DNA of 36,816 nucleotides from a virus (IMGVR_UViG_2563366829_000018:1-36816), one strand, 5' to 3'. Shown: positions 18,199-28,785, numbered from the stretch's first letter. The notes: a model not told the origin generated them from the letters alone. Translations and numbers: made by a program.

Positions 18199-18203
18199 GC
18201 ATG

Positions 18204-18235
18204 TAAAAAGGCCCCAACACATGTGCGTGGGGCCT
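18204..18235 (-). terminator. Intrinsic terminator upstream of the lysis cassette (7-bp GGCCCCA stem, then TTTTT on the minus strand)
   Basis: Read directly. Confidence 0.45.
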
Positions 18236-18434
18236 GAGAGTATACATGGTTTCAGTCAACTGCATGGTGCCGTGTGCCTCCCGGTGAATTCAGTACCAGC
18301 ACCTGAATCCGCGATTATCCCATATACCTACTCGCTGATTGCCCCTCCGCACAGGGGGATTCACCATGCCAGTTTCTTTTGACAAACTCCCCGCAAAACA
18401 GACAACTGTCAACCGTCTGAATTGTGAGACATTT

Positions 18435-18459
18435 AAAAAAAGGCCCGCAAAAGCGAGCC
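18435..18459 (-). terminator. Intrinsic terminator just downstream of the tRNA cluster (GGCUCGC-UUUU-GCGGGCC followed by UUUUUUU)
   Basis: Read directly on the minus strand. Confidence 0.5.
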
Positions 18460-18473
18460 GGGAAAAATAAGTC

Positions 18474-18550
18474 TGGCGCGTTGTACTGGATTCGAACCAG
18501 TGACCGATTGCTTAGAAGGCAATTGCTCTGTCCGGTTGAGCTAACAACGC
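18474..18550 (-). tRNA. tRNA-Arg, anticodon UCU
   Basis: 77-nt cloverleaf folded by hand: GCGTTGT acceptor, anticodon loop CTTCTAA, TTCGAAT T-loop, encoded CCA. Confidence 0.85.
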
Positions 18551-18563
18551 AGGGTACAGATAA

Positions 18564-18640
18564 TGGACCACCATCGAGGACTCGAACCCCGCGCAACCAG
18601 CTTCGAAGGCTGGTGCTCTATCCTGATGAGCTAATGGCGG
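18564..18640 (-). tRNA. tRNA-Arg, anticodon UCG
   Basis: 77-nt cloverleaf folded by hand: anticodon loop CTTCGAA, TTCGAGT T-loop, encoded CCA. Confidence 0.8.
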
Positions 18641-18647
18641 TATGTGA

Positions 18648-18723
18648 TGGTGGCCCTTGCTGGATTTGAACCAGCGACCTGGCGATTATGAGTCGCTCGC
18701 TCTCACCACTGAGCTAAAGGGCC
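18648..18723 (-). tRNA. tRNA with CAU anticodon, ileX-like (Ile2 via lysidine, or Met)
   Basis: GGCCCTTTAGCTCAGTGGTGAGAGCGAGCGACTCATAATCGCC...CCA closely resembles E. coli ileX. Confidence 0.85.
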
Positions 18724-20768: not shown

Positions 20769-21140
20769 CTATATGTAACAATCAATTTCTAAAGATACCC
20801 CCAACATTGCCAGACAACCGTCAATAAACCCTTCAGCTTTCTGCAGTCTGATAACAACCTGATTAAGTGATATCCCCAGTTTTACCCCCAACACCCGTAA
20901 TGTAACCCCATACACATAATACATTTCCAGTAATTCGTATTGATACGGTTCCTTTTTCTTAAGAACTGTCATCGCAGAGCTAATGATCAGGCCATCGTCA
21001 TCGCTACATTGCGGGCGGGATTTTACTTTCGAAGGAATTAATCCCTTAAAACCTGCAGCAACAGATGACCATTCCACATCCTCGTGATTATTTGCCACCC
21101 ATGCCCCCCAACGTTCAAGAACCATTTGAATATCACGCAT
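20769..21140 (-). CDS. Q: Late-gene antiterminator Q (QuuD/phage-82 type)
   Basis: MRDIQMVLERWGAWVANNHEDVEWSSVAAGFKGL matches the QuuD-family N-terminus as I recall it; GGAG RBS; position upstream of the lysis module. Confidence 0.75.
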   Translation of the reverse strand: MRDIQMVLERWGAWVANNHEDVEWSSVAAGFKGLIPSKVKSRPQCSDDDGLIISSAMTVLKKKEPYQYELLEMYYVYGVTLRVLGVKLGISLNQVVIRLQKAEGFIDGCLAMLGVSLEIDCYI

Positions 21141-21157
21141 CAACTTTCTCCACAAAA

Positions 21158-23132: not shown

Positions 23133-23528
23133 TTACCGAGTTGCTAATTTGCAACTCGCTTTTTCGTACTTACTGATAGTGATCTCGACCTTCCCCTCCG
23201 GGATAACCGGTCCCCACTCCACCAGCATTCTTTTCACCTGACTGTCGTCTTCCCACACACCCGCGTGGGTCAGGGCGTCAAACAGCGCCTTGTTATAGTT
23301 GTCCAGATCGCGGATCCGGTTATCCGGAGGAAACAACACGATCTCCACTGAAGCAGGTGCCGACGTTGGTTTCGGCAGACGACGTAACTGCTCAACTATT
23401 GCTGCACACGCCGCGCTCTGGAATTTTCGCCCCGCCGCGCTTATCAGGCTCTTACCAGCAAACGCCCCTTTGTTGGGGTGTCGCCAGTACGTGTTCACGC
23501 TGGGCGGAAAAGGCAGTATTAGCTTCAT
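23133..23528 (-). CDS. rusA: Holliday junction resolvase RusA
   Basis: RDLDNYNKALFDALTHAGVWEDDSQV matches the RusA catalytic core (RRRDLDN...FDAL). Confidence 0.85.
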   Translation of the reverse strand: MKLILPFPPSVNTYWRHPNKGAFAGKSLISAAGRKFQSAACAAIVEQLRRLPKPTSAPASVEIVLFPPDNRIRDLDNYNKALFDALTHAGVWEDDSQVKRMLVEWGPVIPEGKVEITISKYEKASCKLATR

Positions 23529-23851
23529 ACTTTCAGGCCCCTCTCATGTAACCAGTGGGTTGCACGCAGCCTTGCGTTTTCCTCACCGGCAAGCAGTGCG
23601 CGGATAATCCCGACCGCCTCGCTGTCGTCGTCCTTCATCGCAGTATGAAGCGTTATCCCCCGGGCCACGCCACGCTTTATCGTGATGACGCCTTTTTTCT
23701 CCAGTGCGCGAAGATGCTCCACCGCTGCATTCACCGAACGGTATCCCAGCATGGTTGCCACCTCCTGATTGGTTGGCGGGAAGCCACGTTCTTTCTGATA
23801 AGAAATCAGCATATCCAGCACCTGCTGCTGGCATTGAGTTAACGTCGTCAT
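23525..23851 (-). CDS. LexA N-terminal DNA-binding-domain protein without a peptidase domain
   Basis: LTQCQQQVLDMLISYQKERGFPPTNQEVATMLGYRSVNAAVEHLRALEKKGVI parallels the LexA winged-HTH; only 108 aa. Confidence 0.65.
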   Translation of the reverse strand: MTTLTQCQQQVLDMLISYQKERGFPPTNQEVATMLGYRSVNAAVEHLRALEKKGVITIKRGVARGITLHTAMKDDDSEAVGIIRALLAGEENARLRATHWLHERGLKV

Positions 23852-24501
23852 GCCGCCATCTCCCTGACCAGTTTTTCCGCCTGCTGGCGAACCTGCGCCA
23901 GAAACGCCTCACCACATGCCTCAAGTTCATCGCGCCCTATGTAGCTGATTGCCGGTCCCTTCCAGGTCTTGTCGAAAACAGCAATAGCACCAGCGAAGAA
24001 AGCACCTGTTGGCACCTGCTTTTCGTCTTTCGGGATAAACCAGGCAGGCAGTTCAAAACCAATACGCCCGCGAATAAAAGCAATATGATCTGCATCTTCC
24101 GGCCACCACACTTCGCTGGTGGCAGCTTTGATCAGGAAAACATAGCGCCCGCCTTTATCACGCATGGCACTGGCATGTTTCATGATGTAACGCATGCCGG
24201 TGATGTATTGCCCCTCATGCTGACTGGCGCGGCTGTACGGGGGATTACCAAAGGCAGCACCTTTAAGCTCCGCAAGACGTTCAGACCAGTCATGCGCCAG
24301 CGCGTTGTCTTCCGCAGTGTAATACGCAGCACATTTGGCGTTATCACCGTCAGTGAACAGATCCAGAACAAACGGGCCAAACAGGGTGTTAATTCCCCAG
24401 AAAATGTTGTCCGGCGTGCGCCACTGATCGCCCACTTCCTTCAGTTCATGGGCTGGTTTGTTCCGCAGTTCCACCAGCGCCTGGCAATATTTATTACTCA
24501 T
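23848..24501 (-). CDS. Phage DNA N6-adenine methyltransferase (Dam-like), orphan
   Basis: NPPY catalytic motif (FGNPPYSRAS); no adjacent restriction gene; start set at MSNKYCQ. Confidence 0.8.
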   Translation of the reverse strand: MSNKYCQALVELRNKPAHELKEVGDQWRTPDNIFWGINTLFGPFVLDLFTDGDNAKCAAYYTAEDNALAHDWSERLAELKGAAFGNPPYSRASQHEGQYITGMRYIMKHASAMRDKGGRYVFLIKAATSEVWWPEDADHIAFIRGRIGFELPAWFIPKDEKQVPTGAFFAGAIAVFDKTWKGPAISYIGRDELEACGEAFLAQVRQQAEKLVREMAA

Positions 24502-24995
24502 TAAGCCCCCACGAAATTCCCTGACAGATACCACTCTTCACCCGATGCAGCGCGCTTGCTGCTTTTCCGTAAGCACCGCTCACGACGTGCCAGAAAATTG
24601 TTTCGTTCTGGCTGGGAGTGGCTTTCACGGAATGCCGCCATCCACACCGTTGCAGCACGACGGTATAAGCCCCTGGACTCCAGTTCTTCAGCCTGGCGGG
24701 TCAGGCACAAAATCACACGGGGATCGTTAGTGCCGACATAGAAATTGCGCACAGGTCTGGTTTCACGAACTGGTTGTGGTTCCGGATCCTGCGCTCTCTC
24801 AGTCAGGCGTGGGAAATGTCTGCGTGTATCTCCTTCACAACGGTGAGCCACACGCCCACTCTGACGTAACTTGCTTGCTGACTGCAGAACGCGCTGCCGT
24901 GAGTAACCAGCAAAAGCATCCGCAATGTCTCCGGAAGTACAGCCCGGATGGGCTTCAATGAATTTCTGAACTTCATTCAAAAGACTCATGATCAC
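24501..24995 (-). CDS. Hypothetical protein with a PerC-like C-terminal region
   Basis: LESRGLYRRAATVWMAAF resembles the PerC/Pch signature (GLWRRAA..W); ATGA coupling with the upstream gene. Confidence 0.45.
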   Translation of the reverse strand: MIMSLLNEVQKFIEAHPGCTSGDIADAFAGYSRQRVLQSASKLRQSGRVAHRCEGDTRRHFPRLTERAQDPEPQPVRETRPVRNFYVGTNDPRVILCLTRQAEELESRGLYRRAATVWMAAFRESHSQPERNNFLARRERCLRKSSKRAASGEEWYLSGNFVGA

Positions 24996-25810
24996 CCCCT
25001 GAATCCTTCCGGGATCTGGCTGTAGTCCACGTTGTCGTAACTGGCTTTGAAGTACGGGTCCTCGCGTCTGACTGCAGATACCGCAGGAACTTCCCAGGAT
25101 TCTTCGAAATGACGATCCGGGCCAAAGAACGTGACAGCCTGTTTCACAAATTGTGTGCCGCTGTTACCCATCGCAGATACCCAGCCCGCGTAGCGTTTCA
25201 CACCTTCCAGCATGGTTTCGGGGTTTACCCCCTCATTCAAACGGGCTTTCCAGGCTTTGAAGGCTGCAGATTTTGAATTGCCACCAGCACGTTTTGGATA
25301 GGCCAGCCATGCCTGCTCAAACTCCGGAGAGTATTCCGGTCGGTTTGAACGAACTCGCACAGACTCATCAGCAGATGCACCAACAGCTATTGGTTCATTG
25401 ACTGGTTCTTTGACTGGTTCAAAAGAGTGACTGGTTCTGGGTGAATCTCCTGCACTACCCCCTGGTGCAACTCCTGCACTACCTGGTGAATTTGCTGCAC
25501 CAGATAGTGAATTATTTGCACTACCCCCTAGTGAATCTCCTGCACCATCAAGATGAAGGAGATAGATATTACTTGAGTTACCTTTTTCACCTTTCCGGGT
25601 GACTTTTTTTACCAGCCCGGACTCACAAAGGGCCGCAATATGATTCATCACAGAACGTTTGCTAATCTCGCACTGGTCAGCAATATGCTGGTAGCTGGGC
25701 CAGCACTCACCCTGATCGCTGGCATTATCAGCCAGCTTAATCAGAACCAGTTTTCGCAATGGATTTCCCACTCGAATTTTCATCGCTTTAACCATCAACT
25801 CCATACTCAT
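24992..25810 (-). CDS. Replication initiator (O-like, N-terminal winged HTH) with a repetitive linker encoded by iterons
   Basis: N-terminal HTH (SYQHIADQCEISKRSVMNHIAALCESGLV); Gly/Ser/Ala-rich repeat region coinciding with DNA direct repeats. Confidence 0.6.
   Translation of the reverse strand: MSMELMVKAMKIRVGNPLRKLVLIKLADNASDQGECWPSYQHIADQCEISKRSVMNHIAALCESGLVKKVTRKGEKGNSSNIYLLHLDGAGDSLGGSANNSLSGAANSPGSAGVAPGGSAGDSPRTSHSFEPVKEPVNEPIAVGASADESVRVRSNRPEYSPEFEQAWLAYPKRAGGNSKSAAFKAWKARLNEGVNPETMLEGVKRYAGWVSAMGNSGTQFVKQAVTFFGPDRHFEESWEVPAVSAVRREDPYFKASYDNVDYSQIPEGFRG
25390..25550. repeat. Candidate replication origin iterons inside the O-like gene
   Basis: Three copies of TGACTGGTTC (25399-25438), two exact copies of GTGAATCTCCTGCAC (25441 and 25531), repeated TGCACTACC units. 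Confidence 0.55.
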
Positions 25811-26031
25811 GCAGCACCTCCGAGATGCTTCATGTTTTTTCCGGAGCGAAAGGCTATAAGCGGCATACTGACGCGGTAATTACGGCCCAGCGGTTCACAA
25901 ATCACCTTCTGACATTCACGGTCAACCAGGCTAACACGTAGAACATGCCCTGCAGGCGTGGTGTACCACTGACCCGGACGAGGACAACGGAAAGTATGAT
26001 TGGTAAACCGTTTGAAAATATTCCGGATCAT
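25807..26031 (-). CDS. Hypothetical small protein (74 aa)
   Basis: ORF translationally coupled to the O-like gene; no recognisable domain. Confidence 0.3.
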   Translation of the reverse strand: MIRNIFKRFTNHTFRCPRPGQWYTTPAGHVLRVSLVDRECQKVICEPLGRNYRVSMPLIAFRSGKNMKHLGGAA

Positions 26032-27188
26032 TTACGCCCCCTTACCTCTGAAGGGTTCAGCGACAAATTTATGAGACTGGCCAGTAGCGCCGCGTCGTTG
26101 ATGCGGTCATACAGACTTACAGCCAGCGGGGATTCGGCTTTTGCCAACATGGGATAAAGCTGCTGCAGCCAGACCTTGTGGATTACCGACAGGTGGGAGT
26201 AAAGCACGCTGGCGTTATCTGCGGCATCGCTCAGCGTGGATGGCTTTGAAAGCAGTTTTTCCATCTGGTTAAAGGCATTGATGTATGCCTCTTTGAACCG
26301 GGCAGCACGTTTACCCGTGAAACCCATAGCAAGAAACGCAAAACCGTCTCGTGTGATTTGATAGCAAAGGAGCTTGCGTGTACCACCGTTCGGTTGATTT
26401 ACCGAAATCGATGTCTCCGCAAAATTGCGGGCACAAAACTCAGGGGAACAATCCAGAGTGCGGATCTTTTTCAGCACATCGTCGTGACGCTTGGAGAAGA
26501 AGTTGGCAACAGCCAAAGAAGTGGTAACGGCCTGGCCGTTGTCAATGGTGATTTCAGGTTGAGTGAGGGCTGGGATCGTAGCCATGATGGCAGCCTCCGT
26601 TGACAGTGAAAAACTTCCACCACCGGAAACGCCAATTTCACTGGTGGTGAACTGGACGGGGTTGGCGTAACCGGCGTCAACGGAGACCGGCGCACCTTTC
26701 GGTGCCCCCGCCCAGCCCACCATAATCTGGATGTGAGCAAATGCGGACGATAAAAAAGACGCTGGCGCGTCATACATCGCCGTTGACAATTTCAGGACGC
26801 CAATCCCGGCACCCGCTTTATAAGGTGCCTGAACAGTGTAACGTCCCGGAATTGCAGAATCAATATGCTGGTGGTCCTTCACACTCAACAAAATCACGCC
26901 TGAATTTCCACAAAGGACTAAAGCACTCATGCGGGTAGTCTTTGCGAAGATAGATAACGCGCTGTGTTTCTGGCTCCCAACGAATAACATGGACATAAAG
27001 CCCTCTTCCGTCACGAAACCAGCGGTTAAGTTCCTGCACAACTCGCCCCCCACAGTCAGGTAAAGTTCTCTGTGGTTACTTACAGCCAGGTGATTTGGTA
27101 ATCTGCATTCATGCCGTAACAACAGGTGTTCAGCGACGCTGACCACCAGCTGTTGCGACAAACGGTTATTTGCCGTTAAACTATTCAT
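26028..27188 (-). CDS. Rha-family phage regulatory protein with a ~200-aa N-terminal extension
   Basis: Rha-like core (ITIDNGQAVTTSLAVANFFSKRHDDVLKKIRTL) at residues ~210-300; ATGA coupling with the CII-like gene supports the long form; an alternative start at 26585 has a GGAGG RBS. Confidence 0.55.
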   Translation of the reverse strand: MNSLTANNRLSQQLVVSVAEHLLLRHECRLPNHLAVSNHRELYLTVGGELCRNLTAGFVTEEGFMSMLFVGSQKHSALSIFAKTTRMSALVLCGNSGVILLSVKDHQHIDSAIPGRYTVQAPYKAGAGIGVLKLSTAMYDAPASFLSSAFAHIQIMVGWAGAPKGAPVSVDAGYANPVQFTTSEIGVSGGGSFSLSTEAAIMATIPALTQPEITIDNGQAVTTSLAVANFFSKRHDDVLKKIRTLDCSPEFCARNFAETSISVNQPNGGTRKLLCYQITRDGFAFLAMGFTGKRAARFKEAYINAFNQMEKLLSKPSTLSDAADNASVLYSHLSVIHKVWLQQLYPMLAKAESPLAVSLYDRINDAALLASLINLSLNPSEVRGRK

Positions 27189-28092: not shown

Positions 28093-28785
28093 ATGAACAT
28101 AGGAAACCGAGTCAGACAACTTCGCCAGGCGAAGAACATGAAAATCGCCGATCTCGCTGAAGCAATAGGAGTGGATGCGGCGAATATCTCACGCCTGGAA
28201 ACAGGTAAGCAGAAACAATTCACTGAACAAGCCCTGAGTAATATTGCCAGGAGCTTAGGTGTTGATATCGCTGATCTCTTTACCTCAGACGTCAAAAGTA
28301 ATACTGTATGTAAAAACAGTATTGGTGAGGATGTTGCGCAGGTGAAGGATGTATTCCGTATTGAAATGCTGGATGTCAGTGCCAGTGCGGGAAATGGCCT
28401 TATCCAGGGCGGTGATGTCATTGATGTGATTCATGCCATTGAATACAGAACTGATAATGCTGTATCGATGTTTGGCGGACGGCCAGCCAATCACATTAAA
28501 GTTATCAACGTTCGTGGGGACAGTATGTGTCCAACCATTGAGCCAGGAGATCTCATCTTCGTTGATATCAGTATCAATCAGTTTGATGGGGATGGTATAT
28601 ATGTATTTGGTTTTGATGATAAAATTTACGTCAAACGACTGCAAATGATACCTGATAAACTGCTGGTAATTTCTGATAATCAGATTTACCGCGAATGGGG
28701 AATTACCAGCGAAAACGAACATCGGTTTATGGTCTTTGGAAAGGTCTTAATCAGTCAGTCACAAACCCTTAAGCGACACAATTAA
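28093..28785 (+). CDS. cI: CI-type prophage repressor (XRE HTH plus S24 LexA-like autopeptidase domain)
   Basis: N-terminal HTH; C-terminal S24-like domain (VRGDSMCPTIEPGDLIFVD ... KIYVKRL); no Shine-Dalgarno sequence upstream of the ATG. Confidence 0.9.
   Translation: MNIGNRVRQLRQAKNMKIADLAEAIGVDAANISRLETGKQKQFTEQALSNIARSLGVDIADLFTSDVKSNTVCKNSIGEDVAQVKDVFRIEMLDVSASAGNGLIQGGDVIDVIHAIEYRTDNAVSMFGGRPANHIKVINVRGDSMCPTIEPGDLIFVDISINQFDGDGIYVFGFDDKIYVKRLQMIPDKLLVISDNQIYREWGITSENEHRFMVFGKVLISQSQTLKRHN

Follow-up and report, generated by a model that had tools for sequence, protein, structure and literature searches.

Among the regulators of the PerC family, PerC itself, encoded by the EPEC adherence factor (EAF) plasmid of enteropathogenic Escherichia coli (EPEC), and PchA, PchB, and PchC, encoded by prophages of enterohemorrhagic E. 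coli (EHEC), activate ler and the LEE1 operon of the enterocyte effacement locus (LEE) by relieving repression by H-NS, StpA, and Hha. The Pch proteins have no known DNA-binding domain, and their activation of LEE1 proceeds solely through the relief of silencing by H-NS, StpA, Hha, and YdgT (PMC4764244). Other members act differently: PchD has no effect on LEE and PchE activates ler less than 2-fold (PMC5931665), PchE represses curli (PMC6265319), and EcCIMP1_025, a PerC-family protein encoded by a phage-inducible chromosomal island (PICI), represses LEE1 and was noted by its authors to resemble the ANR family, other PICI-encoded copies doing almost nothing on LEE (PMC11773190). The ANR proteins, for their part, consist of three helices, are smaller than 10 kDa, and bind directly to AggR, to the linkers of AraC-family regulators, to H-NS, and to Ler (PMC4983702; PMC5570504; PMC10148876). 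Here, we analyzed a gene of the viral sequence IMGVR_UViG_2563366829_000018:1-36816 (36,816 nucleotides, hereafter the window), in which a first-pass annotation had tentatively recognized a PerC-like protein. This gene is yfdN, and its product, YfdN, probably joins a DNA-binding winged helix to one half of a PerC-type domain.

The gene of the window is an already known and already annotated common prophage gene, since it is 100% identical at the nucleotide level to annotated yfdN (WP_077466986.1), a gene to which the NCBI pipeline independently gives the label “yfdN: PerC family transcriptional regulator.” The open reading frame (ORF) of 164 amino acids that the first-pass annotation had delimited was indeed retrieved, on the minus strand (table 1). 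By megablast, yfdN occurs in 2,668 of 5,426 complete E. coli genomes (49%), K-12 included: in the K-12-type CPS-53/KpLE1 remnant (L017, 5735-7199), yfdN is intact and matches the window gene at 100% identity, and both of its neighbors, yfdM (dam) and an O-like replication gene, are truncated pseudogenes. It is also carried by the phages SfV (orf40), SfII, SfIV, mEp460, Ayreon, ST64B (sb43), and F1055, as well as by Stx2a, Stx2c, and Stx2k phages. The PHROG family phrog_1324 (“transcriptional activator”) matches the protein over its full length (amino acids 2-163, E = 1.9e-78), and the elements of this YfdN-like subfamily, namely a winged helix-turn-helix (wHTH), a linker, a PerC hairpin, and a conserved tail, are all present. 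In the literature, YfdN has been termed “the K12 unique PerC homologue” (PMC5931665), and the gene surfaces in three screens: yfdN was among the clones of the ASKA collection with altered glycogen, no mechanism being offered; a UTI89 region containing “yfdN2” was scored for filamentation and not narrowed down to one gene; and a urine-induced fragment recovered by DFI-seq that contains yfdN covers five genes. PADLOC returned no defense-system match for YfdN.

A search against the PerC family, which the first-pass annotation had proposed as a check on its call, returned a match above threshold, and the call was thereby borne out: Pfam PF06069 (PerC) aligns with amino acids 100-151 (nt 24543-24698), and its score (36.1 bits, E = 7.9e-9) exceeds the gathering cutoff of 22.6. 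By BLASTP against the Pch proteins of the O157 Sakai chromosome, YfdN is closest to PchE (40% identical residues across 52 aa, E = 5e-10), then to PchA (41% across 44 aa, E = 1e-7) and to PchD (33% across 46 aa, E = 1e-5), so that the likeness of YfdN to PerC/Pch, as judged by these sequence comparisons, is far beyond chance. In the alignment with these three proteins, A102, L105, E106, G109, R112, R113, A114, W118, R131, R138, and C141 are invariant, all residues of the PerC hairpin signature (A..LE..G..RRA...W ... R..C) are found in YfdN, and a core made of A102, L105, G109, R113, A114, R138, and C141 stays unchanged, or almost unchanged, even in relatives with as little as 25% identity. The motif LESRGLYRRAATVWMAAF, on which the initial call was built and which had been described as C-terminal, does lie in the C-terminal half of the protein (aa 105-122), if not at its extreme C-terminus.

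The domain is nevertheless incomplete. While PchA, PchD, and PchE cover the whole 90-position PerC profile (1-89 aligned) at 149, 124, and 153 bits, respectively, YfdN covers positions 5-56 of 90, that is, the first ~50 residues, and YfdN-type proteins as a group align with about the same positions (~5-56) at 26-38 bits, their divergent relatives scoring 26-32 bits. Direct alignment finds no counterpart in YfdN of the second half of the Pch domain, in place of which stands a tail of the form W-x-L-[AS]-G-x-[YF]-x-G. The two groups also differ in size, as the first-pass annotation had pointed out in describing the protein as larger and extended at its N-terminus: PchA, PchD, and PchE (104, 89, and 90 aa) correspond to the PerC domain alone, in line with the single domain of ~90-105 aa of PerC/Pch proteins, when YfdN, with its 164 (or 162) residues, adds a winged helix and a linker. 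The protein has a mass of ~18.8 kDa (as stated for b2357 in the note to the ST64B Sb43 record) and is basic, with a calculated isoelectric point (pI) of 10.0 that rises to 11.1 in its most basic part, the C-terminal domain.

The N-terminal extension can be assigned a predicted fold. An AlphaFold2 model computed with 20 homologues (mean predicted local distance difference test [pLDDT] of 77.5) describes amino acids 5-62 as helix-helix-helix-beta-hairpin, the arrangement of a winged helix, at a pLDDT of 85-89, and amino acids 92-150 as three helices at a pLDDT of ~90, a domain that reaches a pLDDT of 90-95 and a predicted template modeling score of 0.65 when modeled alone; the tail (aa 151-164) is modeled with low confidence. 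Foldseek compares the predicted winged helix with ArsR/SmtB, MarR-type, and BlaI/MecI structures at a probability of 1.0, though with E-values of only 0.03-0.1. At the sequence level, matches to wHTH families are weak in YfdN (phrog_1687 MarR, E = 8e-5; BilQ, E = 0.004), and no Pfam wHTH match reached threshold in the window protein; among its relatives, MarR_2 scores 32.5 bits in P0186 (cutoff 27), 25.0 in P0202, and 23.3 in P0210. With the C-terminal domain alone, Foldseek found nothing significant (best E = 0.5), the nearest shapes being TPR/MIT-like hairpins, which are protein-interaction modules and not DNA-binding folds, and this likeness is generic. When PDB sequences were searched with the profile of the family, 0 matches came back at E-values up to 10, and hence no solved structure of PerC, ANR, or YfdN. 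Taken with the profile matches, these models describe YfdN as a probable DNA-binding winged helix followed by half of a PerC-type domain.

This arrangement extends well beyond E. coli yfdN. An exhaustive representative search recovered ~18 divergent full-length relatives of 139-165 aa (25-47% identity) that share all modules. Mean conservation across the family is 0.46 in the N-terminal domain, 0.51 in the C-terminal domain, and 0.49 in the tail, and is lowest (0.17) in the linker, whose length varies; within the tail, G159 and G163 are nearly invariant across the 25-47% identity relatives, and L157 is conserved at 0.82. The idea that the tail is a mere by-product of an embedded Shine-Dalgarno sequence of dam was rejected, the tail being kept in lineages that lack dam. 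More distantly, because P0186 and P0210 pair MarR_2-type winged helices with a PerC hairpin, the combination appears from sequence to be a recurrent architecture. We also came across database ORFs that join part of YfdN to an O-like HTH_36 N-terminus, HTH_3, Dam, a baseplate J, or a portal fragment, some of which bear the name “PerC family transcriptional regulator”; they are probably the outcome of deletion, frameshift, or misassembly affecting prophages in decay. P0026, P0106, P0063, P0121, P0122, and P0179 were accordingly read as deletion or frameshift chimeras and discarded as natural architectures, and P0201 (462 aa, six hairpin-like stretches) was set aside as spurious, being a repeat protein of unrelated composition.

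With regard to the limits of the gene, the GTG at the head of the ORF is probably not the genuine start. Because M3-S4-L5 is kept in homologues (the residues ahead of M3 vary) and because a Shine-Dalgarno sequence, AGGGGG, is well spaced 5 nt 5' of ATG 24989, translation likely begins at this ATG and yields 162 aa. The TGA at 24994-24992, between the two elements, is the stop codon of the upstream replication gene, and relatives repeatedly show 4-nt start/stop overlaps at this junction. At the other end, PGAP places the start of dam at the same TAATG position as we read from the sequence (table 1). The translation of yfdN is thus coupled at both of its ends, upstream with that of the replication initiator and downstream with that of dam, and no promoter-like site adjoining yfdN was detected in the window.

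Table 1. Position of yfdN, its parts, and its annotated neighbors in the window.
Feature	Coordinates	Strand	Basis and remarks
yfdN CDS	24501..24995	(-)	ORF list; 164 aa from GTG 24995, stop codon TAA 24501-24503 included
Winged-helix domain, N-terminal (predicted)	24810..24989	(-)	aa 3-62; helices 5-15, 21-27, 33-46, beta-hairpin wing 49-62
Variable Pro/Glu-rich linker	24726..24809	(-)	aa 63-90; predicted disordered; pLDDT <50 at aa 65-81
Three-helix PerC/ANR-type domain, C-terminal (predicted)	24546..24725	(-)	aa 91-150; helices 92-107, 111-124, 128-150
Motif LESRGLYRRAATVWMAAF	24630..24683	(-)	aa 105-122; end of helix 1, turn, and helix 2 of PerC-type hairpin; alignment with PchA/D/E
Conserved C-terminal tail W-x-L-[AS]-G-x-[YF]-x-G	24504..24545	(-)	aa 151-164; absent from PerC/Pch
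5' junction	24987..25000	(-)	AGGGGG-TGATC-ATG: Shine-Dalgarno 25000-24995, TGA 24994-24992, ATG 24989-24987
3' junction TAATG	24499..24503	(-)	yfdN stop TAA overlaps dam start ATG; read from sequence
Replication initiator	24992..25810	(-)	O-like N-terminus with HTH_36/DnaD_N, DnaD-like/primosomal C-terminus; Pfam, phrog_270 (E = 3e-88)
Phage Dam N6-adenine methyltransferase	23848..24501	(-)	Pfam Dam (PF05869), E = 9.7e-46; PADLOC MTase_II, E = 8e-159
Q	20769-21155		Pfam/PHROG scan
cI-like S24 repressor	28093-28785	(+)	Pfam/PHROG scan

We regard the identity and architecture of YfdN as close to certain, and our view of its mode of action as no better than even. The function that we favor, by analogy with Pch and ANR proteins and with a confidence poised midway between belief and doubt, is that of a protein produced in lytic growth that its winged helix would bring to DNA, where it would modulate complexes of nucleoid proteins or of transcription factors, and not that of a dedicated LEE activator. 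Under this proposal, yfdN would be expressed with the delayed-early genes upon induction or infection; the winged helix would tether the protein to DNA; the helical module of PerC/ANR type would contact the nucleoid-associated silencers H-NS, StpA, and Hha or a transcription factor, in keeping with the action of Pch and ANR proteins; and the outcome would be a local shift in the transcription of phage or host genes.

Several points weigh against this proposal. First, YfdN has only half of the PerC domain, so that a Pch-like activity may be lost or altered. Second, Fukui et al. mention as an unpublished observation that PchA and H-NS showed no direct interaction (PMC4764244), which leaves in doubt, even for Pch, the protein that the PerC module contacts. 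Third, no candidate DNA target for YfdN was identified in this analysis, and the composition of the window (51% GC) is not that of AT-rich DNA, so that silencing of the phage by H-NS is not self-evident. Finally, no functional study of YfdN was found in the literature, and in 2025 UniProt still had the protein as uncharacterized (cited in bioRxiv 10.1101/2025.05.07.652715).

Of the alternatives to a DNA-targeted modulator, the one that survives best, albeit as a doubtful possibility, holds that the helical module of YfdN binds and inactivates a regulator of the AraC/XylS family, H-NS, or Ler, in the manner of an ANR anti-activator, with net repression as the result and the winged helix serving for targeting or dimerization. 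The NCBIfam model ANR_neg_reg (NF033650) does match YfdN at 23.4 bits (E = 3.8e-5) and nearly from end to end (positions 5-51 of 54), and the best-scoring relative, P0176, at 25.1 bits, whereas PchA, PchD, and PchE score lower (13.6-17.9); yet 23.4 bits falls short of the NCBIfam cutoff of 32 and the PerC score of YfdN is the higher of the two. The predicted C-terminal domain follows the same three-helix plan as ANR proteins (PMC4983702), and repression has precedents among PerC-family proteins, in LEE1 repression by the PICI-encoded protein whose ANR similarity its authors noted (PMC11773190) and in curli repression by PchE (PMC6265319). However, ANR proteins are single-domain proteins below 10 kDa, when YfdN has two domains and ~18.8 kDa, and they are typically encoded beside an AraC-family gene, whereas neither annotation nor search revealed such a gene in the part of the early operon that was analyzed.

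The surroundings of yfdN bear on the next alternatives. According to Pfam and PHROG scans of the window ORFs, the gene order runs from the cI-like repressor through a cII/CP76-like gene, Ash/Rha, a 74-aa protein, the replication initiator, yfdN, and Dam to a protein reduced to a LexA DNA-binding domain (DBD), RusA, a KilA-N protein, a DUF968/HNH protein, and Q. The gene thus lies between the replication gene and Q, which makes the “nin-region” placement of the first-pass annotation right in the positional sense, and it belongs to the early-right (replication/nin) operon of a lambdoid prophage of the SfV/ST64B/mEp460 type. The initiator matches phrog_1701 (“DnaD-like helicase loader”) at amino acids 147-252, and phrog_9327 as well in its C-terminus; it is the sole replication gene of its module, no separate helicase or loader gene being found in the module of the window. 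In the window, L001, ST64B, and F1055, yfdN directly follows the single replication gene, and the same slot is occupied in three divergent metagenomic lineages in which the upstream gene is on the contig (L006-8, L010, and L012). Overlaps of 4 nt with the initiator recur in several lineages, across which the initiator itself varies in type (three types). In L009 and L015, the contig starts with the yfdN-like gene or close to it, which leaves the downstream order alone readable, and this order agrees; the exception is the most divergent relative, L014, placed after recT and not after a replication gene. On the other side, the next gene encodes Dam in the window, L001, L010, ST64B, and F1055, and an MT-A70 protein (PF05063) in L009 and L015, and a methyltransferase is absent from this slot in L006-8. 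The methyltransferase slot (23848-24501 in the window, 485-1144 in L009, 577-1239 in L015) looks like a case of nonorthologous replacement at a fixed operon position.

Three further features of the window deserve mention in their own right. The LexA-DBD-only protein (108 aa, 23525-23851, minus strand; Pfam, E = 2.9e-19; phrog_362, “transcriptional repressor”) lacks an S24 peptidase and is conserved one or two genes 3' of yfdN-like genes in most sampled lineages (L006, L009, L010, and L015 among them), even in the most divergent metagenomic lineages, though not in ST64B or F1055; it could be a noncleavable LexA mimic acting on SOS boxes. The Ash+Rha ORF (386 aa, 26028-27188, minus strand) contains Rfam matches to the C4 antisense RNA (26640-26727, 81 bits) and to the Hfq-binding small RNA (sRNA) IsrK (26752-26828, 62 bits), both on the minus strand, which resemble antirepressor control of the P1 c4/ant type or the Gifsy isrK type, and the upstream part of this ORF may be spurious. 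Downstream of Q, at 18199-18723 on the minus strand, the tRNAs Met(cat)-Arg(tcg)-Arg(tct) are followed by an STnc100 sRNA (128.9 bits), a cluster laid out like ileZ-argN-argO of the Sakai prophage Sp4.

Given this position, YfdN could alternatively be an accessory of the replication module, placed where lambda has P or ren and, for instance, aiding the O/DnaD-like initiator to recruit the host helicase or to remodel the origin. The coupling directly behind the initiator wherever the upstream gene is readable (L014 excepted), with three types of initiator, is consistent with such a role, as are the lack of a separate helicase or loader gene in these modules and a weak PHROG match of the N-terminal domain to Ren-like proteins (E = 0.009). 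We nonetheless consider it improbable: the initiator has a DnaD-like/primosomal C-terminal domain of its own (phrog_1701, phrog_9327), single-initiator replication modules are a recognized class, YfdN is significantly homologous to transcription modulators and to no replication protein, yfdN is intact in K-12 beside a truncated O-like gene, and the most divergent relative follows recT. Co-occurrence cannot decide the matter, because each sampled module has a single replication gene, and the published description of Eru replication regions does not extend to a module of this kind.

That YfdN would be a dedicated activator of LEE and ler is likewise unlikely, because half of the domain is missing, because roughly one in two complete E. 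coli genomes, K-12 among them, carries the gene, as do Salmonella phages, and because full-domain Pch proteins can be inactive on ler. In its strongest form, in which YfdN would be a functional equivalent of Pch/PerC, turning on ler/LEE1 together with further virulence genes silenced by H-NS in attaching-effacing E. coli, we hold this reading to be very improbable. It can appeal to the above-threshold Pfam match and the preserved signature residues, to the occurrence of yfdN on Stx2a, Stx2c, and Stx2k phages of EHEC, and to the fact that Uhlich et al., before they assayed the Pch proteins, had deleted yfdN from the MG1655 strain in which they used a ler::lacZ reporter (PMC5931665). But the match is confined to profile positions 5-56 of 90 at 36 bits, compared with 124-153 for Pch; PchD and PchE, full-domain proteins, give no or less than 2-fold activation of ler (PMC5931665); and PICI members are inert or repressing (PMC11773190). 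Moreover, most hosts among the 49% of complete E. coli genomes with yfdN, to which Salmonella phages are to be added, are inferred to lack LEE, and the early-operon place of the gene is unlike the cargo positions of pch genes. More generally, membership in the PerC family does not imply LEE activation, because PchD is inactive, PchE has a very small effect, a PICI member represses, and yfdN is found in about half of the complete E. coli genomes, K-12 among them.

A last alternative, that YfdN regulates the adjacent N6-adenine methyltransferase or reads adenine-methylated DNA through its winged helix, is hardly credible in our eyes, since the direct adjacency of such enzymes in most lineages, from two unrelated families (Dam and MT-A70), and the reported sensing of N6-methyladenine by some prokaryotic winged-helix domains (PMC11037411) are offset by the L006-8 lineage without methyltransferase, by the intact yfdN beside a truncated yfdM in K-12, by the lack of specific similarity of YfdN to the DpnI-type winged helix, and by the weakness of adjacency as evidence inside a conserved operon backbone.

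Returning to the winged-helix-targeted modulator, a broader version can be put forward, to which we give limited credence: YfdN-like proteins might form a distinct and widespread class of early phage proteins, in which the winged helix brings a minimal PerC/ANR module to specific DNA sites, so that the phage, in the course of lytic development, would locally remodel H-NS/StpA/Hha complexes or sequester a host regulator. If this were true, a phage module would be the ancestor from which both the PerC/Pch activators and the ANR anti-activators derive as free-standing proteins, and the common hairpin of ~50 residues would be the functional unit of both families. As a finding, the PerC relationship of yfdN is of little weight, the gene being already named and filed under PerC by the NCBI pipeline and PHROGs. 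The gene is not trivial for all that, because a protein still listed as uncharacterized is encoded in roughly one of two complete E. coli genomes, in K-12, and in several model temperate phages, and the present analysis provides handles on it, namely two domains, a PerC half that resembles ANR, and a fixed position in which its translation is coupled to that of the preceding replication initiator. For annotators, “PerC family” on yfdN should not mean “LEE activator.” Beyond yfdN, the ANR likeness of the PerC half suggests that one interaction module of ~50 residues lies behind PerC/Pch and ANR, families that have been treated separately in the literature on virulence regulation.

How, then, does YfdN compare with described systems? 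Its closest counterparts are the phage orthologues SfV Orf40, those of mEp460, SfII, and SfIV, and ST64B Sb43, which have the same neighbors as in the window; the window protein is 94-98% identical to the copies of E. coli and Shigella phages and 68.5% identical to ST64B Sb43. The K-12 gene differs in no matter of substance, except that it stands between truncated neighbors when the window gene stands in a complete-looking prophage. With PerC and PchA/B/C, YfdN has in common the hairpin signature A-x2-L-E-x2-G-x2-R-R-A-x3-W ... R-x2-C; however, PerC/Pch are single-domain proteins of 89-104 aa encoded in cargo regions, whereas YfdN has an additional predicted winged helix and a tail of its own and is encoded in an early operon. 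PchD, PchE, and PICI proteins such as EcCIMP1_025 are short members of the PerC family, PchD and PchE having the full domain in 89-90 aa, and, unlike YfdN, they have no winged helix. Compared with domains of the MarR, ArsR, and BlaI types, the winged helix of YfdN is devoid of MarR-type dimerization helices, and its DNA binding is a prediction. As for the ANR family (Aar, Rnr, and Cnr), which acts by protein-protein contact (PMC4983702; PMC10148876), its likeness to YfdN lies in the predicted three-helix plan and in a match over nearly the whole ANR model.

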